From Escherichia phage D8, in sequence record OM475426: a stretch of 31,345 nt of DNA; one strand, written 5' to 3'. The notes beneath the pieces are model-generated. The model was not told where the DNA came from. It saw only the letters and a program-made list of their open reading frames with translations, and ran no database searches. Shown here one piece after another: positions 1 through 31,345 of the stretch; position 1 is the first letter of the stretch; every line of letters begins with the position of its first letter. The position numbers and the translations under genes were made by a program.

Positions 1-92
1 AGTTTAGATCGTGCTCCGTCAGAATAGGCGCGACACCATGGTGGTCATGCACCTGCATTAAAACCGACCCATGAAGCGGGCGGGCGAGGCGG
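1..92. repeat. Terminal direct repeat: bases 1-92 are identical to 31129-31220 (circular/concatemer wrap of the phage genome)
   Basis: Direct comparison of the window start with 31129-31220; match breaks at base 93 vs 31221. Implies unit genome length 31,128 bp. Confidence 0.9.
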
Positions 93-102
93 GGGAAAGC
101 AC
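83..102. other. cos: Candidate cos (cohesive end / terminase cleavage) site, P2-type
   Basis: Sequence ggcgaggcgggggaaagcac closely resembles the P2 19-nt cohesive end as I recall it (GGCGAGGCGGGGAAAGCAC, from memory), and lies just outside the Q gene 3' end as in P2. Confidence 0.55.
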
Positions 103-244
103 TGCGCGCTGGCGGTGGTGCTGATTTTATTTTTTCAGCGTCTGAGCGCGTCGTGAAGGCGCTTAGTCTGCCCGTTGAGGCGTTGGTTTGCCTGCGGGCT
201 GTTTTGTGCGGTGGTGAGCGTGTGAGGGCGTGATGACGGGATGT

Positions 245-11944: not shown

Positions 11945-14704
11945 ATGAGCACGAAATTTAAAACCGTTATCACTACTGCCGGAGCCGCAAAGCTGGCTGC
12001 CGCCACTGTCCCCGGCGGGAAAAAAGTAAACCTGTCTGCAATGGCCGTGGGTGACGGTAATGGCAAATTACCGGTGCCGGATGCCGGTCAGACGAAACTG
12101 GTGCATGAGGTCTGGCGTCACGCTCTGAATAAAGTCAGTGTGGATAATAAGAATAAAAACTATATTGTGGCTGAACTGGTTGTTCCGCCAGAAGTGGGCG
12201 GCTTCTGGATGCGTGAGCTTGGTCTGTATGACGATGCCGGAACACTGATTGCGGTATCCAACATGGCAGAAAGCTATAAGCCAGAACTGGCTGAAGGCTC
12301 CGGACGTGCGCAGACCTGCCGCATGGTTATTATTCTCAGCAACGTGGCGTCCGTTGAGCTGAGTATTGATGCCAGCACAGTGATGGCTACGCAGGATTAC
12401 GTCGATGACAAAATCGCAGAGCATGAGCAGTCCCGCCGCCATCCTGACGCCACGCTGACAGAAAAAGGTTTTACTCAGTTAAGCAGTGCAACAAACAGCA
12501 CCAGTGAAAAGCTGGCGGCAACGCCAAAAGCGGTCAAGGCTGCGAATGACAACGCAAATTCACGTCTGGCGAAAAATCAGAACGGTGCAGATATCCAGGA
12601 TAAATCAGCTTTTCTGGACAATGTTGGCGTTACCAGCCTGACGTTTATGAAAAACAATGGCGAAATGCCGCTTGATGCTGATCTGAATACGTTTGGTCCT
12701 GTTAAGGCTTATTCAGGTATCTGGTCTAAAGCAACATCCACCAACGCAACACTGGAGAAAAATTTCCCGGAAGATAATGCTGTCGGTGTGCTTGAGGTTT
12801 TTGCTGCCGGCAATTTTGCAGGTACGCAACGCTTTACCACGAGAGACGGCAATGTATACATGCGTAAACTCGCCAATAGGTGGAATGGCACTGATGGTCC
12901 GTGGGGCGTATGGCGTCACACTCAATCTGCTACCCGCCCTTTGAGTACGACTATAGACCTGAATACGCTTGGAGCCGCCGAGCATCTTGGTTTATGGCGT
13001 AACAGTAGCTCAGCTATAGCTTCATATGAACGCAATTATCCAGAGGAAGGCGGCTTTGCTCAGGGGATGCTTGAGATCCTCGAAGGCGGAAATTATGGAA
13101 GAACGCAACGTTATACCACTCGCCGTGGAAATATGTATGTCCGCTGTCTTGCGGCAAGCTGGGATGCATCAAATCCGCAGTGGGAACCGTGGTTAAGAGT
13201 CGGTCATCAGTCAGAGAGTCGTTATTACGAAGGTGATTTAAATGTTCTAACCGACCCCGGTATTTACAGTGTTACAGGAAAGGCAACAAACGGTCCGATG
13301 CTGGACACCGTTGGCGCGACACTACTTGGGATACTGGAAGTAATCAGACGTTTTGATGGTGTGTCTGTCTGGCAGCGTTACACAACCACAGGGAAATCAG
13401 AAACCACACAGGGACGCACTTTTGAGCGCGTCTACGCCGGGAGCAAATGGACCGAATGGCGAGAAGTATATAACTCCTTTTCGTTGCCTCTGAATCTGGG
13501 CATCGGTGGCGCAGTGGCAAAACTATCCAGTCTGGACTGGCAGACCTACGATTTTGTGCCGGGCAGTCTGATAACCGTGCGGCTTGATAACATGACCAAC
13601 ATTCCCGACGGTATGGACTGGGGCGTCATTGATGGCAACCTGATAAACATCGCAGTTGGTCCGAGTGATGATTCCGGTACGGGGCGCTCAATGCATGTAT
13701 GGCGCAGCACTGTAAGTAAAGCGAACTACCGCTTTTTTATGGTGCGTATTTCAGGAAATCCGGGAAGCCGCACGATCACGACAAGACGTGTGCCAATTAT
13801 CGACGAAGCTCAGACATGGGGCGCGAAACAGACATTCAGTGCTGGCCTTTCTGGTGAACTGTCCGGCAATGCGGCGACAGCAACAAAGCTGAAAACAGCC
13901 CGTAAAATTAATAACGTTTCGTTTGATGGAACATCAGATATTAACTTGACGCCGAAAAATATTGGTGCATTTGCTTCAGGAAAAACAGGAGACACCGTTG
14001 CGAATGATAAAGCCGTTGGGTGGAACTGGAGTAGCGGAGCCTATAACGCAACTACTGGTGGGGCATCAACGTTAATTCTTCATTTTAATATCGGTGAAGG
14101 AAGTTGTCCCGCCGCCCAGTTCCGCGTTAATTATAAGAACGGCGGTATTTTTTATCGTTCTGCTCGTGACGGTTACGGATTCGAGGCTGACTGGTCTGAG
14201 TTTTATACCACAACGCGAAAACCTACAGCGGGAGATGTCGGTGCACTGCCGTTATCTGGTGGTCAATTGAATGGTGCTCTGGGTATAGGAACATCCAGTG
14301 CTCTTGGCGGTAATTCGATTGTTTTGGGTGATAATGACACGGGCTTTAAACAAAATGGTGATGGTAATCTGGATGTTTATGCTAATAGCGTCCATATTAT
14401 GCGCTTTGTCTCGGGAAGTATTCAAAGTAATAAAACCATAAATATTACGGGGCGTGTTAATCCCTCGGATTACGGTAACTTTGATTCCCGCTATGTCCGG
14501 GATATCCGGCTTGGTGGTGCTGCCACATACAAACCTGCGAACAATGGCATGACATGGACACATCAGGCACCGTCCGGGTGTGTATATTCCGGCATTATTG
14601 TTCAGGATACCGGCTCAAACTCTGCCGATAACATTGGTGGTGTATATTACAGGCCGGTTCAGAAATACATTAACGGGACATGGTATAACGTGGCGCAGGT
14701 ATAA
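11945..14704 (+). CDS. H: Tail fibre protein (P2 gpH-like N-terminus with expanded mosaic C-terminal receptor-binding region), 919 aa
   Basis: N-terminal ~200 aa resemble P2 gpH as I recall it (MS.KF.TVITTAGAAKLAAA...); the ORF is 919 aa vs 669 in P2; the distal half has lower GC, three tandem ~70-aa modules and a C-terminal domain resembling those of P1/Mu S and lambda Stf. Confidence 0.85.
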   Translation: MSTKFKTVITTAGAAKLAAATVPGGKKVNLSAMAVGDGNGKLPVPDAGQTKLVHEVWRHALNKVSVDNKNKNYIVAELVVPPEVGGFWMRELGLYDDAGTLIAVSNMAESYKPELAEGSGRAQTCRMVIILSNVASVELSIDASTVMATQDYVDDKIAEHEQSRRHPDATLTEKGFTQLSSATNSTSEKLAATPKAVKAANDNANSRLAKNQNGADIQDKSAFLDNVGVTSLTFMKNNGEMPLDADLNTFGPVKAYSGIWSKATSTNATLEKNFPEDNAVGVLEVFAAGNFAGTQRFTTRDGNVYMRKLANRWNGTDGPWGVWRHTQSATRPLSTTIDLNTLGAAEHLGLWRNSSSAIASYERNYPEEGGFAQGMLEILEGGNYGRTQRYTTRRGNMYVRCLAASWDASNPQWEPWLRVGHQSESRYYEGDLNVLTDPGIYSVTGKATNGPMLDTVGATLLGILEVIRRFDGVSVWQRYTTTGKSETTQGRTFERVYAGSKWTEWREVYNSFSLPLNLGIGGAVAKLSSLDWQTYDFVPGSLITVRLDNMTNIPDGMDWGVIDGNLINIAVGPSDDSGTGRSMHVWRSTVSKANYRFFMVRISGNPGSRTITTRRVPIIDEAQTWGAKQTFSAGLSGELSGNAATATKLKTARKINNVSFDGTSDINLTPKNIGAFASGKTGDTVANDKAVGWNWSSGAYNATTGGASTLILHFNIGEGSCPAAQFRVNYKNGGIFYRSARDGYGFEADWSEFYTTTRKPTAGDVGALPLSGGQLNGALGIGTSSALGGNSIVLGDNDTGFKQNGDGNLDVYANSVHIMRFVSGSIQSNKTINITGRVNPSDYGNFDSRYVRDIRLGGAATYKPANNGMTWTHQAPSGCVYSGIIVQDTGSNSADNIGGVYYRPVQKYINGTWYNVAQV

Positions 14705-14707
14705 TTT

Positions 14708-15235
14708 ATGCAGCATTTAAAAAATATTACGGCGGGTAATCCAAAAACGGTTGAACAATATCAATTGACAAAGGGTTTTGATGTTGTCTGGTTTTTTTCA
14801 GAAGATGGTAAGAACTGGTACGAAGAACAAAAGTATTTTGCTGATGACACGATAAAAATAGCGTACGACAAAGATAATATTATCCGCTATGTGGAAAAGG
14901 ATGTGACAGCTATCAGACCGGATGGATTAAGTGTTGTTGAAGTGGCGGATATTACTGCTAACCGACGGGCGGACATTTCAGGGGGCTGGATGTTTAAGGA
15001 CGGCAAAGTGATTAAACGCATTTATACGGCAGAGGAATTGCTGCAGCAGGCAGAAAACCGGAAAGCCAGACTTCTTGCAGATGCTGAATCCGTGATTTTG
15101 CCGCTGGAGCGCGCGGTCAGACTGAACATGGCAACAGATGAGGAGCGTAGCCGACTGGATGCATGGGAGCGTTACAGCGTTCTGGTCAGTCGTGTGGATC
15201 CTGCAAATCCTGAATGGCCGGAAATGCCGCAATAA
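14708..15235 (+). CDS. G: Tail fibre assembly chaperone (P2 gpG-like), 175 aa
   Basis: 175 aa as P2 gpG; immediately downstream of H. Confidence 0.8.
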
Positions 15236-15456
15236 GTTGTATGATCTCTGGAGTGAGCAAACATATCTATGGCACAGAGTAAAGCCTAATCTGACAGGCC
15301 GCTCTGTGTCTGGAGTAGATTTTAGTAAAGCATTATTTTATTAGTGCAAATTCTAATCAATACATTTTATGTATATGATATCCTGCAGACTTTAATGACT
15401 TGGTTTAGGCTAACCAGATAACACTGAAGGAATATTTTTGATAATTAAGGTGCGGT

Positions 15457-16050
15457 ATGTTTACTAAGCGACGATTAAAAAATATTAACTGGGAGGCAAG
15501 TTCAGTGATTCTTGCCATGGTTCTCTTTGTTGGAAATATATTTTATACAAATCATCGTGATGATATAAGCATGGAGGCTGAGAGGGACAGTATCAGAACA
15601 ATGTTTGCATATGAAATCGCTAATAACCATCGCGCTCTCACTTTTCTTGATAAAACGAGATATATTGGCTTTGACGAAAATTCGGAGCATTTTGTTGGCG
15701 AGCCTTTTGCCATTAATGTCAAATCATTAGGGGGGCCTCGCTTACAGATTGCATTAAACCAGACTGATAAAGTGTTTAAATCCTACTTCAGCGAATTAAG
15801 TAAGCTTGATAAAGAGGATGTTACTCTTCTTATGGACTATTACCATGAGCAAAGCATCCTGCTGGAGCGTGTAAAATCTACGTTACAGAAGATGAAAAGT
15901 GGTAATGATATTAAAGTTGATATTGATGGTTACTTATTAGAAGAACACTTCATGAATGAGCTTAATCTTTCTAATATTTTGCTTAAACGCTATAGCCATT
16001 TGTTGTCACAACACGCCAAAGAACATAAAACAAAAGATTTACATAATTGA
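15457..16050 (+). CDS. Cargo (moron) ORF of unknown function, 197 aa, N-terminal transmembrane anchor; at the P2 Z/fun hotspot position
   Basis: AT-rich ORF in a low-GC island between G and FI; RBS aaggtg about 8 nt before ATG; N-terminal hydrophobic helix (SSVILAMVLFVGNIFY) followed by a charged soluble region; no family recognised. Confidence 0.6.
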   Translation: MFTKRRLKNINWEASSVILAMVLFVGNIFYTNHRDDISMEAERDSIRTMFAYEIANNHRALTFLDKTRYIGFDENSEHFVGEPFAINVKSLGGPRLQIALNQTDKVFKSYFSELSKLDKEDVTLLMDYYHEQSILLERVKSTLQKMKSGNDIKVDIDGYLLEEHFMNELNLSNILLKRYSHLLSQHAKEHKTKDLHN

Positions 16051-16256
16051 TAATCTGCTAATGGTTATTCATGGGGTAACTATGTTTTATATGTAATCCA
16101 ACTCAGATGAATTATTGATTCTGGATAATAACCGCAGAGCGGCATATACCCTGACAGGCAAATGTCCGCTTCTTGTTCAAAGCAGACCGTCAGATTTGAT
16201 AACTTTTGGGCTATGTAAATTGTCAGTCGGAAAATGAGTGAGTTCAAATCAGGACA

Positions 16257-16280
16257 GGCGGGCGAATTGCCCGCCTTTTC
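16257..16280 (+). terminator. Rho-independent terminator at the end of the G-FI cargo island
   Basis: Perfect hairpin ggcgggc/gaatt/gcccgcc followed by ttttcttt. Confidence 0.65.
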
Positions 16281-16379
16281 TTTATCTGTTGTTTCATCCA
16301 CTGACCAGCCAGGTCAAATAGCGTCTCATGCTCTGCACAACAGAAAATAGTTGCACCCATTAACCACGGAGTTAAACGG

Positions 16380-17570
16380 ATGAGTGACTATCATCACGGC
16401 GTGCAGGTGCTGGAGATTAACGACGGCACCCGCGTCATTTCCACCGTATCCACTGCCATTGTCGGCATGATCTGCACGGCCAGCGATGCGGATGCGGAAA
16501 CCTTCCCCCTCAATAAACCTGTGCTGATTACCAATGTGCAGAGCGCAATTGCAAAGGCCGGTAAAAAAGGCACGCTGGCGGCATCGTTGCAGGCCATCGC
16601 AGACCAGTCAAAACCGGTCACCGTTGTCGTGCGCGTGGAAGACGGCACCGGTGATGACGAGGAAACGAAACTCGCGCAGACCGTTTCCAATATCATCGGC
16701 ACCACCGACGAAAACGGTCAGTATACCGGACTGAAAGCCCTGCTGGCGGCAGAGTCGGTAACCGGTGTTAAACCGCGTATTCTCGGCGTGCCGGGACTGG
16801 ATACCAAAGAGGTGGCTGTTGCACTGGCATCAGTCTGTCAGAAGCTGCGCGCTTTCGGGTATATCAGCGCATGGGGCTGTAAAACCATTTCCGAGGTGAA
16901 AGCTTACCGCCAGAATTTCAGCCAGCGTGAGCTGATGGTCATCTGGCCGGATTTCCTCGCATGGGATACTGTCACCAGTACCACCGCCACCGCGTATGCC
17001 ACCGCCCGTGCGCTGGGGCTGCGCGCTAAAATCGACCAGGAGCAGGGCTGGCATAAAACGCTGTCCAATGTCGGGGTGAACGGTGTTACCGGCATCAGCG
17101 CATCTGTATTCTGGGATTTGCAGGAGTCCGGCACCGATGCTGACCTGCTTAACGAGTCAGGCGTCACAACGCTGATTCGCCGTGACGGTTTCCGGTTCTG
17201 GGGTAACCGTACCTGCTCTGATGACCCGCTGTTCCTCTTTGAAAACTACACCCGCACCGCGCAGGTGCTGGCCGACACGATGGCTGAGGCGCACATGTGG
17301 GCGGTGGACAAGCCCATCACCGCAACGCTGATTCGCGACATCGTTGACGGCATCAATGCCAAATTCCGTGAGCTGAAAACAAACGGCTATATCGTGGATG
17401 CGACCTGCTGGTTCAGCGAAGAATCCAACGATGCGGAAACCCTCAAGGCCGGAAAACTGTATATCGACTACGACTATACCCCGGTGCCTCCTCTCGAAAA
17501 CCTGACCCTGCGCCAGCGTATTACCGATAAATACCTGGCAAATCTGGTCACCTCGGTTAACAGCAATTAA
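16380..17570 (+). CDS. FI: Tail sheath protein (P2 gpFI-like), 396 aa
   Basis: 396 aa as P2 FI; RBS ggag upstream; followed by tube gene. Confidence 0.9.
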   Translation: MSDYHHGVQVLEINDGTRVISTVSTAIVGMICTASDADAETFPLNKPVLITNVQSAIAKAGKKGTLAASLQAIADQSKPVTVVVRVEDGTGDDEETKLAQTVSNIIGTTDENGQYTGLKALLAAESVTGVKPRILGVPGLDTKEVAVALASVCQKLRAFGYISAWGCKTISEVKAYRQNFSQRELMVIWPDFLAWDTVTSTTATAYATARALGLRAKIDQEQGWHKTLSNVGVNGVTGISASVFWDLQESGTDADLLNESGVTTLIRRDGFRFWGNRTCSDDPLFLFENYTRTAQVLADTMAEAHMWAVDKPITATLIRDIVDGINAKFRELKTNGYIVDATCWFSEESNDAETLKAGKLYIDYDYTPVPPLENLTLRQRITDKYLANLVTSVNSN

Positions 17571-21519: not shown

Positions 21520-22682
21520 TGCTGGATGCACTGACATTTGATGCAGGCAGTACGCTGACGCCGGATTACATGCTGATACTCGACAGCAGGGATATTACCG
21601 GCAATATCAGCGACCGTCTGATGAGCATGACCCTGACGGATAACTGGGGCTTTGAGGCTGACCAGCTTGATATTGAACTGAACGATGCCGACGGGCAGGT
21701 CGGGCTGCCGGTTCGTGGCGCTGTCCTGACGGTGTATATCGGCTGGAAAGGTTTTGCCCTGGTATGCAAAGGGAAATTTACCGTTGATGAGGTTGAACAC
21801 CGGGGCGCGCCGGATGTGGTCACCATCCGCGCCCGGAGTGCAGATTTTCGCGGGACGCTCAATTCCCGCCGGGAAGGCTCCTGGCATGACACCACGCTCG
21901 GTGCGATTGTTGAGGCAATAGCCTACCGTAACAGGCTGGAAGCCAGTGTCGCGCCGTCACTGGCCGGAATTAAAATCCCGCACATCGACCAGTCGCAGGA
22001 GTCTGATGCGAAATTCCTGACCCGTCTTGCAGAACGCAACGGCGGAGAGGTGTCGGTAAAAATGGGAAAACTGTTGTTTCTCAAAGCGGGGCAGGGGGTG
22101 ACGGCCAGCGGTAAAACAATCCCGCAGATTACCATCACCCGCAGTGACGGCGACCGCCATCATTTTGCGATTGCTGACCGTGGAGCCTATACCGGCGTAA
22201 CAGCAAAGTGGTTACACACCAAAGACCCGAAACCGCAAAAGCAGAAGGTAAAACTGAAACGCAAAAAGAAAGAAAAACACCTGCGCGCACTGGAGCACCC
22301 GAAAGCGAAACCGGTCAGGCAGAAGAAAGCGCCAAAAGTACCGGAAGCGCGCGAAGGTGAATACATGGCCGGTGAGGCTGACAACGTTTTTGCCCTGACC
22401 ACGGTATATGCCACGAAAGCGCAGGCCATGCGCGCCGCTCAGGCGAAGTGGGACAAACTGCAACGGGGTGTGGCGGAGTTCTCCATCAGCCTGGCTACCG
22501 GTCGGGCAGATATTTACACGGAAACGCCGGTCAAAGTGTCAGGCTTTAAGCGCGTCATAGACGAGCAGGACTGGACCATCACTAAGGTGACACATTTTCT
22601 GAATAATAGCGGCTTCACGACGTCCTTAGAGCTTGAGGTCAGGCTTTCTGATGTGGAGTACGAAACAGAAGATGATGAATGA
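21519..22682 (+). CDS. D: Tail protein / late gene D (P2 gpD-like), 387 aa
   Basis: 387 aa as P2 gpD; ATGCTGGATG overlap with the U stop. Confidence 0.85.
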   Translation: MLDALTFDAGSTLTPDYMLILDSRDITGNISDRLMSMTLTDNWGFEADQLDIELNDADGQVGLPVRGAVLTVYIGWKGFALVCKGKFTVDEVEHRGAPDVVTIRARSADFRGTLNSRREGSWHDTTLGAIVEAIAYRNRLEASVAPSLAGIKIPHIDQSQESDAKFLTRLAERNGGEVSVKMGKLLFLKAGQGVTASGKTIPQITITRSDGDRHHFAIADRGAYTGVTAKWLHTKDPKPQKQKVKLKRKKKEKHLRALEHPKAKPVRQKKAPKVPEAREGEYMAGEADNVFALTTVYATKAQAMRAAQAKWDKLQRGVAEFSISLATGRADIYTETPVKVSGFKRVIDEQDWTITKVTHFLNNSGFTTSLELEVRLSDVEYETEDDE

Positions 22683-22763
22683 TGTTTTTATTTTATCTGT
22701 TTGTTTTATAAGGATAAATTAACTAAAATGGCACCATCAACAAAACCGGAAGAGGTGCTCGCG

Positions 22764-22982
22764 ATGTTTCATTGTCCTTTATGCCAGCATGCCGCACATG
22801 CGCGTACAAGCCGCTATATCACTGACACGACAAAAGAGCGTTATCACCAGTGTCAGAACGTGAATTGCAGTGCCACGTTCATCACTTATGAGTCGGTACA
22901 GCGATACATCGTGAAGCCGGGAGAAGTCCACGCCGTAAGGCCGCACCCGTTGCCATCAGGGCAGCAAATTATGTGGATGTAA
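22764..22982 (+). CDS. ogr: Late transcription activator Ogr (zinc-finger), 72 aa
   Basis: Start at MFHCPLCQHAAHARTSRYI... gives 72 aa with Cys-x2-Cys ... Cys-x4-Cys zinc-binding pattern, matching P2 Ogr as I recall it. Confidence 0.85.
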   Translation: MFHCPLCQHAAHARTSRYITDTTKERYHQCQNVNCSATFITYESVQRYIVKPGEVHAVRPHPLPSGQQIMWM

Positions 22983-22993
22983 TTACAAACAGA

Positions 22994-23018
22994 AAGCCCC
23001 TCAGTCGAGGGGCTTTTT
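22994..23018 (+). terminator. Rho-independent terminator after ogr
   Basis: Hairpin aagcccctc/agtcg/aggggctt followed by tttttt. Confidence 0.7.
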
Positions 23019-23197
23019 TGTCGATGTGGTCAATGTGTGGACGTAACCAGAAATAAATCCTTTTATTTCACGTGATTAGATATCAAAAAATGTCACCAAT
23101 AACTGACTTGGTAGCCCCCGCCGTAGCGGTATTTTCTGTTGTATTACAATTAGTTAAATTACTCATATCGCTTCAATTGGCTCTAGTTAACTCTGGT
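23019..23197. other. attP: Probable attP region (phage attachment site) between ogr and int
   Basis: Position equivalent to P2 attP; AT-rich; contains an inverted repeat gaaataaa/tttatttc (23050-23069). I did not recognise the P2 attP core, so the core cannot be pinpointed. Confidence 0.35.
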
Positions 23198-24193
23198 TTA
23201 TGGACGCATTATGGACATTCCTGACACCGGGTTAAGAGTCACAGCATCTTGTAAGAAATCCGGTGCAAAGTGTGCGTAGGTCATAGTTTGCTGAATGTTA
23301 GAATGACCCAGGATGCGCTGCAATGTGATTATGTTACCTCCATTCATTATAAAATGTGTGGCAAATGTATGCCTCAAAACATGTACTGCTTGTCCGTCAG
23401 GTAAATCGGGTTTTACTTCCCTGAGAGCGTTACGCACTTTGTAGTAACTGGCATTAAAAAGCCTGCCTGAATTTTTGGTCTTGATCCGTTTAATCAGGTC
23501 CTGCGAAACGGGAATTGTCCTGCGTTTTCCGTTTTTAGTTTTCATAAACGTAACCATCTGGTTAATGATGTGTTCAGCTTTTAAATTAGACACTTCACTC
23601 CAGCGTCCACCAGTAGAAAGGCAGACCAGAGTTGCATTTAATTCATCACCATCAAGCATGGATAACAGCCGCGTAATCTCTTCACTGGACAAAAAAGCCA
23701 TTTCCGTAACAGCTTCACGTAACCGTTTAATCTCACGGAACGGGTTGTGGGAGTGGTATTCACCGGCGTCAATTAACTTGGTGAACATCCCGCTCATTAT
23801 TGCCAGATGTCGATTTACGCTGGCTGGTTTTAGACCATCGTTCATCATTACAACGCGATAATCAGTTATCGTTTTCTTTGTTAGCTGGTCAGCTCTGGAC
23901 ACTCCCATTTCTGCAAATTTGGCGATTATTGTCGTTAAACGCCCCCGTTCAATATCTCCACGCTCATGTGATTTTCCGTGATATATCCACCATCTACCTA
24001 ACAACTCTGTAAGAGTTCGGCGGTCGGCTGGTTTCTCCAACCACTCTTTGTTGTGGTAGTTAACCAATACATGACGTTCGAATGCCTGAGCTTCACCTTT
24101 AGTTTTAAATTTCCGCCTGATACGTTTTCCATCTGCACCCTGCGGTCTGACGTCCACTTCATAACGACCATCATCGAGCTTTTTAATAGACAT
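23198..24193 (-). CDS. int: Tyrosine integrase (P2-family), 331 aa
   Basis: Tyrosine recombinase hallmarks in the C-terminal half (HVLRHTFATH ... MTYAHF); RBS ggaggg before ATG; location next to attP and the immunity region. Confidence 0.85.
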   Translation of the reverse strand: MSIKKLDDGRYEVDVRPQGADGKRIRRKFKTKGEAQAFERHVLVNYHNKEWLEKPADRRTLTELLGRWWIYHGKSHERGDIERGRLTTIIAKFAEMGVSRADQLTKKTITDYRVVMMNDGLKPASVNRHLAIMSGMFTKLIDAGEYHSHNPFREIKRLREAVTEMAFLSSEEITRLLSMLDGDELNATLVCLSTGGRWSEVSNLKAEHIINQMVTFMKTKNGKRRTIPVSQDLIKRIKTKNSGRLFNASYYKVRNALREVKPDLPDGQAVHVLRHTFATHFIMNGGNIITLQRILGHSNIQQTMTYAHFAPDFLQDAVTLNPVSGMSIMRP

Positions 24194-24286
24194 AAAGCCC
24201 TCCGATGACGCTGTTTACTTCTACTACTTGAAAATTAATGCAATTTTCTTTCGTACATTTACTACACACATATGCTGAATAAATCG

Positions 24287-24586
24287 TCAGCCAGTCTTCT
24301 GGTCTGAGTGGTGCAAGGTTGTTGAGTCTTGCCCAATGTGTGCGAGAGCCGGGGCTATTTGTCCAGCTGCTGGATCTGTTTCATCAAACATGAACCAGTC
24401 ACGATACTTGCGAAAGCGTGGATGCTTAAACAGCTTCATACCTGCTTCCATAGGCATTTTTGATTTTCCTGATTCATATCCATGATATGTGTAGTAATTA
24501 ATTCCAATTAATTCAGCAAGTTCCTTAGTTTTAAGGCGTTCGGATTCACGGATGAGCTTTAGTTTCTCACTTTGTTCACTTGACAT
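24287..24586 (-). CDS. C: Immunity repressor (P2 C-like), 99 aa
   Basis: Start at MSSEQSEKLKLIRES... gives 99 aa as P2 C; helix-turn-helix-like segment (TKELAELIGINYYTYHGYESG); divergent from cox. Confidence 0.75.
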   Translation of the reverse strand: MSSEQSEKLKLIRESERLKTKELAELIGINYYTYHGYESGKSKMPMEAGMKLFKHPRFRKYRDWFMFDETDPAAGQIAPALAHIGQDSTTLHHSDQKTG

Positions 24587-24679
24587 AATTTTGCTAATCT
24601 CCAATTATATTGCTACTTGGCAATTTGTGATTCACTCAAAAAGGCTCTAGATGGCTCCAGTTGGTGAATCGCAAATCTT
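24587..24679. promoter_or_regulatory. Immunity switch region: divergent Pc/Pe promoters with candidate operator repeats
   Basis: 93-bp intergenic region between divergent C and cox; partial inverted repeat tgtgattcac (24626-24635) and tggtgaatcgc (24662-24672) flanking GGCTC-tagat-GGCTC (24643-24657). Confidence 0.45.
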
Positions 24680-25051
24680 ATGGAGGATAGCAAAGTGACG
24701 ACAAATGTAGAAATTTCTTGTCCAACTAGCGATGAGGCAAGTTTCGAAAATGAAGCCAAACGTAAAAGCATTCAGATTTCAGAGCGCCCATCTGATTTGC
24801 TGTCGAAAGAAGGTTTTGCTCTTTACATCGGTAAGACACCACGCGCGGTGGCTGAAATGGCTAAAGCAGGAAAGCTGCCAGCCTTCTACATGACAGACCC
24901 ATTAAAACCAAGAGGGAAAGCTGAATTATGGATTAATCGCCGTGAGTGGGACAAGTACGCAGCCCAACTGGTTGATGAAGCTCCGACAGAATGGCATGAC
25001 TGGAAAAATCGCATTAGTTACAGCAAATCAAGACATGGCCGTGCGGCTTAA
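24680..25051 (+). CDS. cox: Cox-like excisionase/early repressor (DNA-binding), up to 123 aa
   Basis: First rightward gene opposite C; central segment FALYIGKTPRAVAEMAKAGKLPAFYMTDP resembles a Cox/AlpA-type HTH; start codon uncertain (ATG 24680 or later GTG). Confidence 0.6.
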   Translation: MEDSKVTTNVEISCPTSDEASFENEAKRKSIQISERPSDLLSKEGFALYIGKTPRAVAEMAKAGKLPAFYMTDPLKPRGKAELWINRREWDKYAAQLVDEAPTEWHDWKNRISYSKSRHGRAA

Positions 25052-25232
25052 GGTGGAAAGGATGAACGAGCCTCGTTGTATTGCTCAGTTATTGCGTAAC
25101 GAAAGCCCCAGGGCGATTGACTTCACCATCACCCACGGTAAGGGGCGTAAGGGAATCATTATCCGCACCAAAAAACAGAGTCCGTTAAAAAAGGCTCTGA
25201 CCTTTCTGAAAAGCCGGAGGGTATGGAAATGA
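24996..25232 (+). CDS. Small early ORF (P2 orf78-like), 78 aa
   Basis: ORF 24942-25232 with internal start MTGKIALVTANQD... giving 78 aa; overlaps the cox 3' end out of frame; positional equivalence to P2 orf78. Confidence 0.5.
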   Translation: MTGKIALVTANQDMAVRLKVERMNEPRCIAQLLRNESPRAIDFTITHGKGRKGIIIRTKKQSPLKKALTFLKSRRVWK

Positions 25233-25729
25233 CAGTGATGACGCTCAATCTCGTTGAAAAACAGCCAGCAGCTATGCGCCGGATAATTGGCAAGCATCTT
25301 GCCGTCCCTCGCTGGCAGGATACATGTGATTATTATAATCAGATGATGGAGCGCGAACGGCTAACGGTTTGCTTTCATGCACAGTTAAAACAGCGTCACG
25401 CAACGATGCGTTTTGAAGAAATGAACGACGTCGAACGTGAACGACTGGTATGTGCAATTGATGAATTGCGTGGGGCATTCTCAAAACGCCGTCAGGTCGG
25501 TGCAAGTGAGTATGCATATATTAGCTTTTTAACTGTCAGTCAGCGCCGTACTTTATTTATGCATGCCGGATTGACTGAAAAAGAATTCAACCAGCCATAC
25601 TGGCGAATTAATGAAGAGTCATGTTACTGGCGTGATGCTTTATTCCGTGCATTACGTGAATTATTCAGTCTGTTTGAGTATGCACCGACAATTCTGACGT
25701 CGGTAAAACCAGAGCAATATCTGCATTAA
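25223..25729 (+). CDS. B: Replication protein B (P2 gpB-like), 168 aa
   Basis: Length close to P2 B (166 aa as I recall) and position between cox and the A gene cluster. Confidence 0.75.
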   Translation: MEMTVMTLNLVEKQPAAMRRIIGKHLAVPRWQDTCDYYNQMMERERLTVCFHAQLKQRHATMRFEEMNDVERERLVCAIDELRGAFSKRRQVGASEYAYISFLTVSQRRTLFMHAGLTEKEFNQPYWRINEESCYWRDALFRALRELFSLFEYAPTILTSVKPEQYLH

Positions 25730-25792
25730 GTAATTAACCAGAGTTTTTAACGCACTTAATTGTGCGGGGCTTCTTTTTGCCTGGAGAAAGTC

Positions 25793-26017
25793 ATGCATAC
25801 AGTTTCTGAAAATGAGTGCGGTAAATACGCATTACTGCTGCAACAGGCCAGAACCGAAGCACAGGCCGATGCAGCGACGCGCTTTTCTTCTCATCTTGAC
25901 GCCATGATTCGCCACATCACAAAGGCGGAGTTATCCCGCGTGGAGATAGTCGAGCTGCTCAGTCAGGAGTCGGAAAAATTTCACAACATCGGATTGTCTC
26001 GCGGGGAGGTGCTTTGA
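25793..26017 (+). CDS. Small early ORF (P2 orf80-83 cluster, first member), about 74 aa
   Basis: RBS ggaga before ATG at 25793 ([12 protein letters not shown]...); positional equivalence to P2 small ORFs between B and A. Confidence 0.5.
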
Positions 26018-26316
26018 TGTCCTGTTCTCGTTCAGTTGTTTTACTGAACAATGCCTTAAAAATCGCCGTTATGAAAAATGGCGATTTGTCTCTTATTCAA
26101 CTTGGTCTTGATAAAGAAAAACGCGAAATAACTGAATCTGTTATCGCGATTTATCAGAGTGAATTAAACCTCCTGTCTGATGTGGTCAATTTACTTGTTA
26201 AACGCGCTGTATTTCACAAGCAAATTTCCTCAGTGGATGAACTGACAAAATTAACGACAGAACTTGCCAGTTATTGCGCTGATGTATCCAGGAAACTTAA
26301 CGATAAAAGGAGCTGA
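26014..26316 (+). CDS. Small early ORF, 100 aa, unknown function
   Basis: ATGA overlap with preceding ORF; consistent codon usage; part of early operon. Confidence 0.5.
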
Positions 26317-26318
26317 TA

Positions 26319-26543
26319 ATGCCGGACAACGTAGATTTTATTCAGGAACAACAGGCTGAATTACTGGAGCGCCAGATTAACGCGGCAAGGGTAAAACATT
26401 GCGGTGTTTCTGCGCTGGTTTGCGAAGAGTGTGACGCACCAATACCTGCTGCCCGTCGTGCGGCTTATCCGTCAGCCACGCGTTGTGTTTCCTGTCAGTC
26501 AGTCTTTGAAGCAAAAAACAAACATTACCGGAGAACGGCATGA
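26319..26543 (+). CDS. TraR/DksA-family C4 zinc-finger protein, 74 aa
   Basis: Cys-x2-Cys (CEEC) and Cys-x2-Cys (CVSC) pairs about 20 residues apart at the C-terminus with preceding helical region, typical of phage TraR-like proteins. Confidence 0.65.
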   Translation: MPDNVDFIQEQQAELLERQINAARVKHCGVSALVCEECDAPIPAARRAAYPSATRCVSCQSVFEAKNKHYRRTA

Positions 26544-26815
26544 GTATTCGTATTGAAATTGGCGAACGTTATGTCGTTACCAGTGACAGCTTTCAGTTTA
26601 TTCTCCACGAGAAAAAGAGAGCGGAAAGCGGTAAAAACGCCGGTCAGGAATGGCTGGCGGTGGTTGGTTATTACCCGAAATTAAGCCAGCTCGTTTCCGG
26701 CCTGATGCATCACGATATTCTGACCGGAAGCGCAAAATCTTTTGCTGATTTAAACGCGCAGGTTGAGCAACTCAGCAAGCGTTGTTCAGAGGCTTTTGGC
26801 TCATATGGCCGTTAA
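26540..26815 (+). CDS. Small early ORF, 91 aa, unknown function
   Basis: ATGA overlap with previous ORF; overlaps the A start by about 11 nt. Confidence 0.45.
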   Translation: MSIRIEIGERYVVTSDSFQFILHEKKRAESGKNAGQEWLAVVGYYPKLSQLVSGLMHHDILTGSAKSFADLNAQVEQLSKRCSEAFGSYGR

Positions 26816-29084
26816 AGCCTCCGGGCGTTTTGTCCCTCCGTCAGCATTTGCCGCAGGCACCGGTAAGACATTTACCGGTGCTTATGCATGGAACGCGCCA
26901 CGCGAGGCCGTCGGGCGCGAAAGACCCCTTACACGTGACGAGATGCGTCAGGTGCAAGGTGTTTTATCCACGATTAACCGCCTGCCTTACTTTTTGCGTT
27001 CGCTGTTTACTTCACGCTATGACTACATCCGGCGCAATAAAAGCCCGGTGCACGGGTTTTATTTCCTCACATCCACTTTTCAGCGTCGTTTATGGCCGCG
27101 CATTGAGCGTGTGAATCAGCGCCATGAAATGAACACCGACGCGTCGATGCTGTTTCTGGCTGAGCGTGACCACTATGCGCGCCTGCCGGGAATGAATGAC
27201 AAGGAGCTGAAAAAGTTTGCCGCCCGTATCTCATCGCAGCTTTTCATGATGTATGAGGAACTCAGCGATGCCTGGGTGGATGCGCATGGCGAGAAAGAAT
27301 CGCTGTTTACGGATGAGGCGCAGGCTCACCTCTATGGTCATGTTGCTGGCGCTGCACGTGCTTTCAATATTTCCCCGCTTTACTGGAAAAAATACCGTAA
27401 AGGACAGATGACCACGAGGCAGGCATATTCTGCCATTGCCCGTCTGTTTAACGATGAGTGGTGGACTCATCAGCTTAAAGGCCAGCGTATGCGCTGGCAT
27501 GAAGCGTTACTGATAGCTGTCGGGGAGGTCAATAAAGACCGTTCTCCTTATGCCAGTAAACACGCCATTCGTGATGTGCGTGCGCGCCGCCAGGCAAATC
27601 TGGAATTTCTTAAATCGTGTGACCTTGAAAACAGGGAAACCGGCGAGCGCATCGACCTTATCAGTAAGGTGATGGGCAGTATTTCTAATCCTGAAGTTCG
27701 CCGGATGGAGCTGATGAACACCATTGCCGGTATTGAGCGTTACGCCGCCGCAGAGGGTGATGTGGGGATGTTTATCACGCTGACCGCGCCGTCAAAGTAT
27801 CACCCGACACGTCAGGTCAGAAAAGGCGAAAGTAAAACCGTTCAGCTAAATCACGGCTGGAACGATGAGGCATTTAATCCAAAGGATGCGCAGCGTTATC
27901 TCTGCCGCATCTGGAGCCTGATGCGCACGGCATTCAAGGATAATGATTTACAGGTCTACGGTTTGCGTGTCGTCGAGCCACACCACGACGGAACGCCGCA
28001 CTGGCATATGATGCTTTTTTGTAATCCACGCCAGCGTAACCAGATTATCGAAATCATGCGTCGCTACGCGCTCAAAGAGGATGGAGACGAAAGAGGAGCT
28101 GCGCGAAACCGTTTTCAGGCAAAGCACCTTAACCGGGGCGGTGCTGCGGGATATATCGCGAAATACATTTCAAAAAATATCGACGGCTATGCACTGGATG
28201 GTCAGCTCGATAACGATACCGGTAAGCCGCTTAAAGATACTGCCGCGGCTGTTACCGCATGGGCGTCAACGTGGCGCATCCCGCAATTTAAAACGGTTGG
28301 CCTGCCGACAATGGGGGCTTACCGTGAACTACGCAAATTGCCTCGCGGCGTCAGCATTGCTGATGAGTTTGACGAGCGCGTCGAGGCTGCACGCGCCGCC
28401 GCAGACAGTGGTGATTTTGCGTTGTATATCAGCGCGCAGGGTGGGGCAAATGTCCCGCGCGATTGTCAGACTGTCAGGGTCGCCCGTAGCCCGTCGGATG
28501 ACGTTAACGAGTATGAGGAAGAAGTCGAGAGAGTGGTCGGCATTTACGCGCCGCATCTCGGCGCGCGTCATATTCATATCACCAGAACGACGGACTGGCG
28601 CATTGTGCCGAAAGTTCCGGTCGTTGAGCCCTTGACTTTAAAAAGCGGCATCGCCGCGCCTCGGAGTCCTGTCAATAACTGTGGAAAGCTCACCGGTGGT
28701 GATACTTCGTTACCGGCTCCCACGCCTTCTGAGCACGCCGCAGCAGTGCTTAATCTGGTTGATGACGGTGTTATCGAATGGAATGACCCGGAGGTCGTGA
28801 GGGCGCTCAGAAGCGCATTAAAACACGGCCTGAGAAGACCAAACCGTCAGCAAAGAAACGGAAGCCCGTTAAAACCGCATGAAATAGCGCCATCGGCCAG
28901 ACTGACCCGGTCGGAACGAATGCAAATTACCCGTATCCGCGTTGACCTTGCTCAGAACGGTATCAGGCCGCAGCGATGGGAGCTTGAGGCGCTGGCGCGA
29001 GGGGCTACCATAACATATGGCAGGAAGACGTTTATATATCCTACAATCGATGTGTGTTTGGGATATTCTGCTTTTACAAAATGA
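26805..29084 (+). CDS. A: Replication initiation protein A (rolling-circle nickase, P2 gpA-like), about 759 aa
   Basis: Start at MAVKASGRF...; length about 760 aa as P2 gpA (761 aa); HUH-like motif (PHWHMMLF) and Tyr-containing motif (AGYIAKYISKN) consistent with a rolling-circle initiator. Confidence 0.85.
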   Translation: MAVKASGRFVPPSAFAAGTGKTFTGAYAWNAPREAVGRERPLTRDEMRQVQGVLSTINRLPYFLRSLFTSRYDYIRRNKSPVHGFYFLTSTFQRRLWPRIERVNQRHEMNTDASMLFLAERDHYARLPGMNDKELKKFAARISSQLFMMYEELSDAWVDAHGEKESLFTDEAQAHLYGHVAGAARAFNISPLYWKKYRKGQMTTRQAYSAIARLFNDEWWTHQLKGQRMRWHEALLIAVGEVNKDRSPYASKHAIRDVRARRQANLEFLKSCDLENRETGERIDLISKVMGSISNPEVRRMELMNTIAGIERYAAAEGDVGMFITLTAPSKYHPTRQVRKGESKTVQLNHGWNDEAFNPKDAQRYLCRIWSLMRTAFKDNDLQVYGLRVVEPHHDGTPHWHMMLFCNPRQRNQIIEIMRRYALKEDGDERGAARNRFQAKHLNRGGAAGYIAKYISKNIDGYALDGQLDNDTGKPLKDTAAAVTAWASTWRIPQFKTVGLPTMGAYRELRKLPRGVSIADEFDERVEAARAAADSGDFALYISAQGGANVPRDCQTVRVARSPSDDVNEYEEEVERVVGIYAPHLGARHIHITRTTDWRIVPKVPVVEPLTLKSGIAAPRSPVNNCGKLTGGDTSLPAPTPSEHAAAVLNLVDDGVIEWNDPEVVRALRSALKHGLRRPNRQQRNGSPLKPHEIAPSARLTRSERMQITRIRVDLAQNGIRPQRWELEALARGATITYGRKTFIYPTIDVCLGYSAFTK

Positions 29085-29199
29085 ATGGTGTCGGAACATA
29101 ATATTTTCAGGTGTTCAAAGAGTTTGTTCTGATGTTCTTGCTATTTTTGTTTCTTTTGATGAAAATGGCGTCTTTAAAATTGGTTAAAAGGTGTGTTGT

Positions 29200-29688
29200 A
29201 TGGATGGTTTATGGGAAAAAATATCGTCTTATAATATATTTAACAATCTCTTTCCCGGTGCTTTGTTTATTTATTTGTTTGAGCGGGCAACCAATGTGAT
29301 ATTATCCACAGATGATGTTGTTAAGAATGTGGTACTTTACTATTTTACGGGGATAATTATCGGAAGGATTGGGTCTATTGTTTTTGAGCCTGTGTTGAAA
29401 TTTTTGGGGCTGGTAAAATTTGTTCCATATGAGGAATATATCTCAGCATGTAGAAAGGATAATAAAATAGAGCTTCTTCAAGAAACTGCAAATATGTATA
29501 GGACGTTATTCTCTATGTCCTTGGTTTTTTTGTTTTCTTTGTTTTTTGTTTCGTTTGTAGTTGGTGGTGATTACATGGCGTCGAAATGGATTTCATTGTT
29601 TTTGATTTTTGTTTTTATTGTGTCGTACGTTAAGCAAATTAAGTTTATTACATTAAGAGTGAGTAAGGCTAATAATAAGCTGCCCTAA
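29200..29688 (+). CDS. Cargo ORF: small polytopic membrane protein (about 4 TM helices), about 162 aa, unknown function
   Basis: AT-rich; RBS aaggtg before ATG at 29200; hydrophobic segments FPGALFIYLF, VVLYYFTGIIIGRIGSIVF, LFSMSLVFLFSLFFVSFVVGG, WISLFLIFVFIVSYV. Confidence 0.55.
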   Translation: MDGLWEKISSYNIFNNLFPGALFIYLFERATNVILSTDDVVKNVVLYYFTGIIIGRIGSIVFEPVLKFLGLVKFVPYEEYISACRKDNKIELLQETANMYRTLFSMSLVFLFSLFFVSFVVGGDYMASKWISLFLIFVFIVSYVKQIKFITLRVSKANNKLP

Positions 29689-29696
29689 GGCAGCTT
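29677..29696. terminator. Bidirectional hairpin terminator between the convergent cargo genes
   Basis: Perfect 8-bp stem aagctgcc/ctaa/ggcagctt spanning the stop codon of the plus-strand ORF and lying 7 nt from the minus-strand ORF stop; T/A-rich flank on the minus-strand side. Confidence 0.55.
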
Positions 29697-29702
29697 AACG
29701 AA

Positions 29703-30788
29703 TTATTCTTCAGTCTTATAACTCCTTGCGTATGAGCGTGGGGTGACTGCAGTCCAGCCATCTCTGGCGGGGGCATTACTAGAATGGCGTTTATTGGTGC
29801 CTTCTGTGGCGACTACTTTGGCTCCACGCCTTGTAAAAGCATTAATGACCGCTTGATGAGGGTGTTTATCGGAATCCGGTGCGCATGATATAAATGCACA
29901 AACACCACTTCTTCCTCCTTCGCTTACAATATTTCCAACGAGCTTATTTAGCACCGCTGGACCGATGTTTCTCCTGCTTCCATGGTGGGGCACTTGAATA
30001 AATGATAATGAGTTATTATTTATATGATCAGCAGCCATATCTAATGCAGTTATTCCTGCATCACCTGTAAATACTAGTGTTTTATTGTCAATTTCAATTT
30101 TTAATATAACGCTTGAATTGTTTTGTGCAGTAGTTGTGTCCTTGTCATCAATTCCCTCATCAGAGAACCAATCAGCAATATACTCGACTTGTTCTTTGGC
30201 TTTCTCAAAAAAGTAGTTATATGCATCTGTACCACTGGTTGCAGTTGTTTCTGCTTTTTCAGGCATTCTTGCAAAATCGGGGATTAATGTTTCATAGTAT
30301 GCTTGTGTTGGTCCAATAACAACCAGTTTAGAATTGTCCCAAGTCCTGCCTTGAAAAGGCTCCTTAATTTCTATTCCTTTTTTTTTCGCTGATTTGACGG
30401 CATCATAGGCTTTTTGTAGATTATCTTGTATACGTCTGGCAATACTTGCATCTGTTATCCTTCCATCAGCAAATTCCTGCGCGAGATTTTCATTATGCTC
30501 CCAAGGCTGGTGAATCCAGAACTCTTTGACTTCCGCATTCTCAATCACATGCTCAAGGCCGCCAGCATGGTCGCTATCTGGATGCGTGGATATGAGTAAG
30601 TCAATAGTATTTGTATGATAGTATTTCTGTAAATGTTCAATTATTTGTGGACCAGTGCTTGCGTACCCCGCATCAATTACGACAACTTTTTGCTCTGCTC
30701 TTGTTCCGTGGAGGTTGCCCCATCTTATGCAGATAGCATCTCCACTTTTTTTTTCTCCAACTGCTAAGAAATCAACTTCGTAACCCAT
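29703..30788 (-). CDS. Cargo ORF: metallo-beta-lactamase-fold hydrolase (possible nuclease), 361 aa
   Basis: All five MBL-fold motifs in order: VVVIDAG (Asp), STHPDSDHAGG (HxDxDH variant of HxHxDH), FWIHQ (His), VFTGDAG (Asp), VPHHGS (His); AT-rich; RBS-like aaggg before ATG; located where P2 carries tin/old. Confidence 0.75.
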   Translation of the reverse strand: MGYEVDFLAVGEKKSGDAICIRWGNLHGTRAEQKVVVIDAGYASTGPQIIEHLQKYYHTNTIDLLISTHPDSDHAGGLEHVIENAEVKEFWIHQPWEHNENLAQEFADGRITDASIARRIQDNLQKAYDAVKSAKKKGIEIKEPFQGRTWDNSKLVVIGPTQAYYETLIPDFARMPEKAETTATSGTDAYNYFFEKAKEQVEYIADWFSDEGIDDKDTTTAQNNSSVILKIEIDNKTLVFTGDAGITALDMAADHINNNSLSFIQVPHHGSRRNIGPAVLNKLVGNIVSEGGRSGVCAFISCAPDSDKHPHQAVINAFTRRGAKVVATEGTNKRHSSNAPARDGWTAVTPRSYARSYKTEE

Positions 30789-31128
30789 TCTTGTGCCCTT
30801 CTGTAGTTTTCAACTTTATGTAAGTGTTGTACGCCAAAGTAGTGCAGGACTTGATTAGGCAATCAAAGACCTTTAAAACAATATCAGGATGCATAAATAT
30901 TCGTGTCTAGATCAATAGATTAGATCGAGTTTTTGATAATCAATTTGCGCCTGCTTCTTGATAACCGTTGTTAGTGTAAATTTTGCGCAATGTAATTGGC
31001 AAATCACTGCGATATGAGTTGCGTGCCAGCCAGCTTTAATATGCAGACTTTGCTATATCTTTCTACACGATTTTTATTTTCAGATGTGCAAGCATTAGGC
31101 GCATTGTTTTGCATGCGTTGGAGCTGCT

Positions 31129-31220
31129 AGTTTAGATCGTGCTCCGTCAGAATAGGCGCGACACCATGGTGGTCATGCACCTGCATTAAAACCGACCCAT
31201 GAAGCGGGCGGGCGAGGCGG
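31129..31220. repeat. Second copy of the 92-bp terminal direct repeat (identical to window bases 1-92), includes the first half of the cos-like sequence
   Basis: Exact match read from sequence; divergence begins at 31221. Confidence 0.9.
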
Positions 31221-31345
31221 CATTAGATATGGCTGCTGATCATATAAATAATAACTCATTATCATTTATTCAAGTGCCCCACCATGGAAGCAGGAGAAAC
31301 ATCGGTCCAGCGGTGCTAAATAAGCTCGTTGGAAATATTGTAAGC
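31221..31345. repeat. 125-bp inverted duplication: reverse complement of 29922-30046 (internal to the MBL-fold gene)
   Basis: Reverse complement of gcttacaatatttccaacgagc...cagccatatctaatg (29922-30046) equals 31221-31345 exactly as far as I can read. Confidence 0.85.

Follow-up and report, generated by a model that had tools for sequence, protein, structure and literature searches.

Metallo-beta-lactamase (MBL)-fold proteins of several defence systems (HamM, Avs-MBL, the Lamassu/ABC-3C MBL, the DRT UG9 MBL and CanC of canu) were shown in 2025 to be DNase zymogens, or pro-nucleases (PMC12799240; PMC12642450). Two insertions block the active site of these proteins until a trypsin-like, caspase or subtilisin partner cuts each insertion after a conserved isoleucine. 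Cut sites have been mapped by experiment in HamM (I118) and VcMBL (I133 and I232). The activated enzyme is a Zn-dependent, non-specific DNase that kills cells (PMC12799240; PMC12642450). Pro-nucleases are effectors that different sensors have acquired repeatedly, always together with an activating protease. Here we analyse a two-gene cassette of Escherichia phage D8 (sequence record OM475426; ‘the window’ denotes this whole stretch of 31,345 nucleotides). Gene B (29703..30788, minus strand, ATG start, stop codon included) encodes a 361-amino-acid (aa) cytoplasmic MBL-fold protein, a predicted ComEC-like DNase, and gene A (29200..29688, plus strand) encodes a 162-aa membrane protein. This cassette and approximately 700 relatives pair the enzyme with a membrane protein instead of a protease.

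A second point of reference is provided by Kiwa (KwaA/KwaB), Zorya and SNIPE, in which a membrane component stations a DNA-targeting effector at the site of genome entry (PMC12904381; PMC11785009). In the cassette, too, a membrane-embedded component is encoded with a cytoplasmic effector that would target DNA; the resemblance is one of analogy. The effectors differ: DUF4868, ZorD or GIY-YIG/PD-(D/E)xK in Kiwa, Zorya and SNIPE, and a predicted MBL nuclease here. By its enzyme the cassette most resembles the pro-nucleases and, by its architecture, the Kiwa/Zorya/SNIPE class. It lies in the gpA-cos interval of a P2-like phage, a documented anti-phage hotspot (PMC9122126). The old, tin and orf91 genes of P2 share this locus and the expected role of protecting the lysogen but have no homology to the cassette, and a PADLOC scan of the window found no match to Old or Tin. 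The gene pair itself was already known and listed; what is new is that its pro-nuclease-like enzyme has a membrane protein as partner and no protease. To a specialist, an MBL gene that is a candidate for defence at this locus will come as no surprise, and it is the question of gating without a protease, together with a large clade of membrane partners that escapes existing models (the D type, below), that merits experiment.

A pro-nuclease-like MBL protein

The first-pass annotation of the window, made from its letters, had described a 361-aa minus-strand open reading frame (ORF) carrying the MBL motifs in their proper order. The ORF is exact, and the motifs VVVIDAG (35-41), STHPDSDHAGG (67-77), H93, VFTGDAG (239-245) and VPHHGS (266-271) follow one another as described. 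The profile searches it had recommended matched both an MBL family (Pfam Lactamase_B, E=2.4e-13, over the gathering cutoff) and a defence model (PDC-M48B, discussed below). The catalytic residues D39, H69, D71, D73, H74, H93, D243, H268 and H269 are invariant among 44 diverse homologues with identities down to 48%. In a wider alignment that adds ComEC and two pro-nuclease-type MBLs, the motif residues align with MBL catalytic positions, and D39, H69, D71, D73, H74, D243, H268 and H269, that is, the same residues minus H93, are again invariant. Given the Lactamase_B match over its cutoff and this invariance, the motif set is not a chance occurrence. The AlphaFold2 model of protein B reached a predicted local distance difference test (pLDDT) score of 89.5 and a predicted template modelling (pTM) score of 0.89, with a single disordered or flexible loop at 182-194. 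A sequence scan found neither a signal peptide nor a transmembrane (TM) segment in the protein.

The proposal that this protein belongs to the ComEC/Rec2-type branch of the fold stands in part. ComEC was the top match of protein B in a PDB sequence search, with STHPDxDHxGG and VPHHGS aligned, and the structural similarity between its nuclease domain and the C-terminal nuclease domain of ComEC/Rec2 (PDB 9ic4, 30bt) is real. The second-best structural relative is Pce, a phosphorylcholine esterase. However, protein B is a cytoplasmic, stand-alone protein that lacks the channel and OB-fold domains of ComEC and has ∼120 extra residues, made up of two insertions and a tail. The ComEC model TIGR00361 scores it at 50.9 bits against a cutoff of 190, and the match covers only the C-terminal motifs (profile positions 558-660). 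What the first-pass annotation had not considered is that, judged by sequence, the nearest functionally characterised relatives of protein B are the protease-activated MBL pro-nucleases and not ComEC.

This relationship is visible at several levels. Protein B aligns colinearly with the PADLOC Lamassu-MBL model (residues 13-283 against positions 10-278 of 345, E=5.6e-28), and further matches were obtained to the models for the DRT MBL (3.9e-21) and Avs1a (1.3e-15). Two MBLs from annotated plasmids served as comparators. The Lamassu-like one (L082) matches protein B by BLASTP at 5e-11, and the caspase-linked, canu-like one (L083) by hhalign with a probability of 97.6%. The first of these genes lies directly upstream of an ABC-three-component/AAA ATPase operon on a Shewanella plasmid (L082:5001-10837), and the second belongs to an operon of a caspase, a hypothetical protein and the MBL on a Rhizobium plasmid (L083:2580-6062). 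In alignment A2, both insertions are present in protein B and in the two comparators, and in none of ComEC (L080) and two short secreted MBLs (L050, L055). The pro-nucleases and protein B have in common a ComEC-like MBL core, identical catalytic motifs, a length of ∼320-390 aa, both insertions and defence contexts.

Relative to ComEC, the insertions of protein B span residues ∼94-128 and 166-218. The first is very conserved (F106, D108-G109-R110, T112-D113 and S115), and in the second a disordered part that varies between homologues (177-206) precedes W207, D210 and I/L213. Protein B departs from the pro-nucleases in an additional loop at 284-296, in a conserved, acidic C-terminal tail (AP-R-GW...PE-Y...EE), and in candidate cut-site positions that are not strictly isoleucine. 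A further difference lies next door. Pro-nucleases have an adjacent, co-evolving protease that is usually fused to a sensor, whereas the partner of protein B is a small multi-TM protein. No protease domain was found in the window cassette or in the partner proteins scanned from related loci, and protein B scores 62.7 bits against a cutoff of 420 with the curated Avs1a model NF041809. Because a protease is absent and curated cutoffs are not reached, the cassette is not a protease-gated pro-nuclease system.

Another described system, the anti-jumbo-phage system 6A-MBL (E2-E1-JAB Cap2/3 plus an MBL enzyme), likewise has an MBL-fold effector. The window holds no E2, E1 or JAB gene, and protein B scores 33.8 bits against the 6A-MBL enzyme model, for which the cutoff is 220; the cassette does not belong to this system.

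The database names of both genes are misleading. The region is labelled ‘tail protein’ in RefSeq NC_049389, protein B is a ‘ComEC/Rec2 family competence protein’ according to PGAP, and protein A and its homologues are called ‘phosphohistidine phosphatase’ by NCBI; profile searches supported none of the three names. Protein B does match phrog_7043, a ‘tail protein’ profile, at 8.5e-156, through profile positions 619-901 of 1077 only. That profile looks chimeric, so the ‘tail protein’ name is probably an error. As for ‘phosphohistidine phosphatase’, no Pfam or NCBIfam model backs the name, which has been given to a small bundle of membrane helices.

A conserved membrane partner and no protease gene

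The first-pass annotation had treated the MBL gene as a lone piece of cargo and overlooked the gene 14 bp away from it, which encodes its conserved membrane partner. PGAP places the start of gene A at 29200, and an alternative GTG start is found at 29191. Hydropathy shows three helices of protein A to be strongly hydrophobic and a fourth, at the N-terminus, to be weaker; the protein matches phrog_11864 at 5.7e-98. Its invariant polar residues are K7, Y11, R56, S59, R101, Y143, K145 and Q146, and the conserved residues cluster at the N-terminus, in the loop 69-102 and at the basic C-terminal end. The positive-inside rule would put all three regions on the cytoplasmic side of the membrane, a placement that would fit a docking or regulatory surface. 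The AlphaFold2 model is all-helical (pLDDT 89.9). A fold search of it against the PDB returned only generic helical bundles (best E=0.14), with no match to a solved fold or a protease, and PADLOC returned nothing but PDC-M48A at E<0.1.

The pairing extends far beyond this phage. Among 40 loci with a full-length protein B, an adjoining small multi-TM gene was found in 29. A D-type partner, as we call a four-TM protein of ∼210-260 aa, is present in 26 of the 40; its gene is mostly directly downstream of gene B on the same strand, with a gap of 0-13 bp or an overlap. A-type partners, resembling protein A, occur in 2 of the surveyed loci, with a partial A-type gene at a contig edge in a third, and another multi-TM gene is found in 1. 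D-type proteins have no match in PADLOC or Pfam and are ‘hypothetical’ in every annotation source (e.g. L010:9091-9846; loci L002-L035, L084, L089). Since the PDC-M48A models miss this partner, PADLOC rules would presumably leave D-type loci uncalled.

A-type genes are also found in other settings. One is upstream of gene B in a cyanobacterium, one overlaps a 297-aa MBL gene in a Firmicute, and one is upstream of a 358-aa MBL gene right after an hsdMSR operon. In Aeromonas enteropelogenes an A-type protein is encoded beside, and convergent with, a 6A-MBL-like pair of Cap2/3 and MBL (L091:296-3790), whose members match the Cap2/3-like E2-E1-JAB model at 6.5e-85 and the 6A-MBL enzyme model at 2e-41, both under the curated cutoffs. 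This locus hints that the A-type membrane protein serves several MBL effector lineages. Elsewhere the usual order of PDC-M48 is A followed by B on the same strand, whereas the P2 version is convergent. A Yersinia P2-like prophage also has the convergent pair, in the interval from gpA to the portal gene and with a protein B identity of 54%, which indicates that the P2 arrangement is old and has been maintained.

The two partner types are linked by a single bridging protein. Direct homology between A-type and D-type proteins is not claimed, as hhalign gave it a probability of 0.2%. A Melainabacteria locus (L006:736-3420) carries gene B, then a weakly MBL-like 274-aa gene, then a gene for a 244-aa four-TM protein that bridges the two types, matching the D profile at 3e-14, the N-terminal half of the A profile at 4e-07 and PADLOC PDC-M48A at 2.5e-5. 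This locus may be an evolutionary intermediate. Two motifs, aromatic...Pro at helix 1 and Tyr...Arg ahead of the third hydrophobic helix, are common to both types, which are probably distant homologues.

Partner type and enzyme phylogeny are not congruent. The window's protein B is 50-52% identical to D-partnered homologues from Vibrio, Rheinheimera, Alishewanella and Aeromonas, and just 33-36% identical to the other A-partnered ones, a separation found in 1000 of 1000 bootstraps of a distance-based analysis. That partner type does not track the phylogeny of protein B points to an exchange of partners and hence to functional equivalence of the A and D types.

Catalogue status, distribution and genomic neighbourhoods

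In PADLOC, protein B matches the PDC-M48B model PDLC04676 almost from end to end (residues 3-355 against positions 5-353 of 357, E=6.4e-99), and protein A matches the PDC-M48A models PDLC04670 (6.8e-49) and PDLC04671 (7.3e-45). The window cassette is an instance of the PADLOC candidate PDC-M48. The first-pass annotation, which had not recognised the MBL protein as a member of a named defence system, needs correction here: a name exists, for a system that is predicted only. PDC stands for PADLOC phage-defence candidate and M for multi-gene (Payne et al. 2024, bioRxiv 10.1101/2024.01.29.577857). These unvalidated candidates, 145 in all, were predicted by ‘guilt-by-embedding’ within BREX, DISARM or type I restriction–modification (RM) operons (bioRxiv 10.1101/2024.01.29.577857). 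A reading of ‘PDC-M’ as a candidate of Millman et al. was rejected, as that paper has no MBL candidate. The exact pair (WP_021533448 and WP_021533447) is also contained in Table S5 of a survey of P2 gpA-gpQ hotspot loci, as ‘hypothetical + Lactamase_B’ (Rousset et al., PMC9122126). Listed but with neither phenotype nor mechanism, the cassette is thus catalogued and uncharacterised.

The identical cassette was found in P2-like prophages of 22 of 5,426 complete E. coli genomes. At this frequency (∼0.4%), it could affect host range in phage therapy. The protein B family as a whole comprises 692 cluster representatives (50% identity, E<=1e-30), from Proteobacteria, Actinobacteria, Bacteroidota, Cyanobacteria, Planctomycetes, Acidobacteria and candidate phyla radiation (CPR) bacteria, and also from plasmids.

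Genes flanking the family were examined through 93 proteins from 22 protein B loci. They include PARIS AriA (three times), MADS components, HEC-01A, AbiL, NsnB, PtuA/GajA-like ATPases and Wadjet JetD, as well as type II methyltransferases, ResIII/UvrD helicases and some housekeeping genes. An Aeromonas locus has a type I RM system on one side and Tn7-like tniQ/tniB on the other, and an Acinetobacter plasmid copy adjoins BrnTA. Together with the P2 hotspot and the embedding in BREX, DISARM and RM operons, such neighbours form the usual signature of a defence system. The defence role that the first-pass annotation had thought plausible for the MBL protein is borne out to that extent by the hotspot and by the defence-rich neighbourhoods.

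Proposed function

Three components of a functional model can be weighed separately. That A and B are functionally coupled is very likely, given how widely the pair recurs. A defence role for the cassette is likely. Somewhat more cautiously, protein B is probably a metal-dependent DNase, to go by its intact catalytic motifs and its pro-nuclease relatives. Combined, these suggest a membrane protein that tethers and controls a gated DNase attacking invading DNA, and that thereby would protect the lysogen against other phages or mobile DNA; we regard this combined proposal as evenly poised between right and wrong. Under it, protein A would dock protein B at the inner membrane and keep it in a gated state, with the two insertions as the putative gate. 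A phage-induced membrane event, such as genome injection or a perturbation of the envelope, would be sensed by A, which would then open B without proteolysis. The opened enzyme would cut DNA, the incoming genome first and possibly host DNA if activation persists. The specific step of membrane-sensed, non-proteolytic un-gating, modelled on Kiwa, Zorya and SNIPE, is doubtful and is offered tentatively.

Several observations weigh against this proposal. PDC-M48 is one of the 145 unvalidated candidates. The pair is missing from the table of tested systems in the hotspot survey (Rousset et al., PMC9122126), and no paper naming PDC-M48 or WP_021533447 was found in the literature searched. The likeness of protein B to Pce leaves room for a substrate different from DNA. 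In the model, insertion 1 forms well-ordered helices (pLDDT >90) and not a floppy gate. Eleven of the 40 protein B loci showed no TM partner next to gene B. The convergent arrangement of the window, unlike that of most relatives, excludes co-transcription of the two genes. Finally, PADLOC and the PDB fold search revealed no sequence or fold similarity of protein A to KwaA or ZorAB; as it lacks similarity to these and to any solved fold, a sensor role is proposed for it purely by analogy.

If the cassette does defend its host, the question becomes how a gated nuclease is switched on without proteolysis, and whether tethering to the membrane provides discrimination between self and non-self. A bolder extension, speculative and rather unlikely in our estimation, is that the family (∼700 clusters at 50% identity) is a large overlooked branch of the pro-nucleases in which an inner-membrane protein has replaced the protease. 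Its gates would be reversible and opened by membrane-sensed genome entry, and the A- and D-type proteins would form one sensor superfamily that also serves other MBL effectors, including 6A-MBL-like ones. Such systems would amount to ‘ComEC in reverse’, in which a membrane-bound nuclease would destroy the DNA that enters rather than import it.

Alternative explanations

Protein B might instead be a true zymogen, as HamM and the Avs-linked MBLs are, that is cut by an unlinked protease of the host or the incoming phage, or by protein A acting as a Ser-Lys membrane protease (S59 with K145 or K7). Nuclease-protease pairing is recurrent in the superfamily (PMC12799240; PMC12642450), and protein B has kept both insertions of the protease-gated clade, with hydrophobic candidate gate residues at 111, 116 and 213; protein A for its part has an invariant G58-S59 and invariant lysines. 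Yet the residue at each of these candidate P1 positions varies (111 I/V, 116 I/L/V, 213 I/L), whereas the isoleucines at known cut sites are described as highly conserved (PMC12799240). A protease domain is missing from the cassette and from the partner proteins, and protein A is unlike any solved protease fold. In the far commoner D-type partner the only invariants are an Arg and an Ala, besides a Pro conserved in at least 90%, and no Ser/Lys pair is conserved, which led us to reject a Ser-Lys membrane protease as the main model. Overall, a zymogen cut in this way is improbable.

A toxin-immunity or addiction module would also account for a pair of this kind. In that case protein B would be toxic and protein A would neutralise it; the pair would stabilise the prophage, plasmid or transposon that carries it and would not be dedicated to acting against phages. 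P2 prophages, plasmids and Tn7-like elements do carry the family, in one case beside BrnTA, and related MBL nucleases kill cells when activated (PMC12799240; PMC12642450). Membrane-protein antitoxins for cytoplasmic nucleases are unusual, however, and the neighbours are mainly defence genes, in a family whose candidates were chosen for their embedding in BREX, DISARM and type I RM operons and whose P2 locus is a documented anti-phage hotspot. We therefore think a pure addiction role improbable as well; it would in any case overlap with the tethered-nuclease model, as many toxin–antitoxin modules are abortive-infection systems.

The original picture of an MBL protein acting alone as a cargo effector, next to an unrelated ORF, is quite improbable. 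It draws on the loci in which a TM neighbour was not detected (11 of 40) and on the convergent arrangement in the window, where A and B have separate promoter-like sites. Against this, conservation of the pair extends across phyla and through three gene orders, most lineages couple start and stop codons tightly, PADLOC models A and B as a single system, and Yersinia P2-like phages have retained both genes despite ∼46% divergence.

Very improbable, in our judgement, is a role in phage counter-defence or phage benefit, whether by hydrolysing cyclic nucleotides, as the MBL-fold anti-Pycsar phosphodiesterase Apyc1 does, or by recycling host DNA as a nuclease while the phage grows lytically. Finally, a DNA-uptake (competence) function, suggested by the PGAP name and by the real structural similarity of the nuclease domain, is barely credible and effectively refuted by the domain content of protein B, a cytoplasmic protein of 361 aa in a prophage hotspot with no ComEC channel or OB-fold and a TIGR00361 score below the cutoff.

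Locus boundaries and the sequence record

The window is in essence, at 100% identity, the sequence of Escherichia phage 12W / Peduovirus P24E6b. As the first-pass annotation had stated, the MBL gene lies between gpA and cos, within the documented P2 hotspot (PMC9122126). The left boundary is the P2-type replication gene gpA (26763..29084, plus strand; Phage_GPA E=4.2e-122; ‘replication endonuclease’ in PGAP), which PGAP starts at ∼26805 and which has its stop at 29084. The right boundary is a truncated cos core, GGCGAGGCGG (31211..31220, plus strand). According to the ORF list and PGAP, A and B are the sole genes between gpA and cos, and they form a low-GC island (34-42% against ∼55% elsewhere).

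Genes A and B are convergent, with 14 bp between their stop codons, so in this window they cannot be co-transcribed. A short inverted repeat read from the sequence, CTGCC-CTAA-GGCAG (29680..29693, no strand assigned), spans the gene A stop in this gap and might, with some uncertainty, be a weak bidirectional terminator; a terminator scan did not call it. One sigma-70-like promoter match (TTTACA-18-CATAAT, 10/12; 29073..29102, plus strand) lies ∼100 bp ahead of gene A and extends across the end of gpA, and another (TAGACA-18-GATATT, 9/12; 30880..30909, minus strand) lies ∼90 bp upstream of gene B. Counts of promoter-like and terminator sequences in the region were not above shuffled expectation, and both promoter matches are to be taken as leads only. 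The cassette has no Rfam match.

The full cos core, GGCGAGGCGGGGGAAAGCAC, is located at window positions 85-104, and the portal gene (272-1306, minus strand) lies beyond cos. This core is one G longer than the 19-mer of P2 cos, and owing to the extra G an exact ungapped search with the 19-mer found nothing. The first ∼90 bases of the window duplicate 31131-31220, a terminal overlap of the record. Joined to the truncated cos, and outside the system, is an inverted copy of a gene B segment (31220..31345, plus strand), 126 nt long and a perfect match to 29922-30047. Prophage copies and P24E6b lack it: their match to the window stops at 31210-31220, the P24E6b record itself terminating at window position 31210. 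The inverted copy most likely arose as an artefact when the deposited record of phage 12W was assembled.

Two other stretches of the window are also low in GC, at 14000-16500 (36-46%) and 22500-26500 (41-48%), against ∼55-60%. They may correspond to further accessory or variable parts of this P2-like genome, such as the immunity/early region and a locus of the tail-fibre or Z/fun type.

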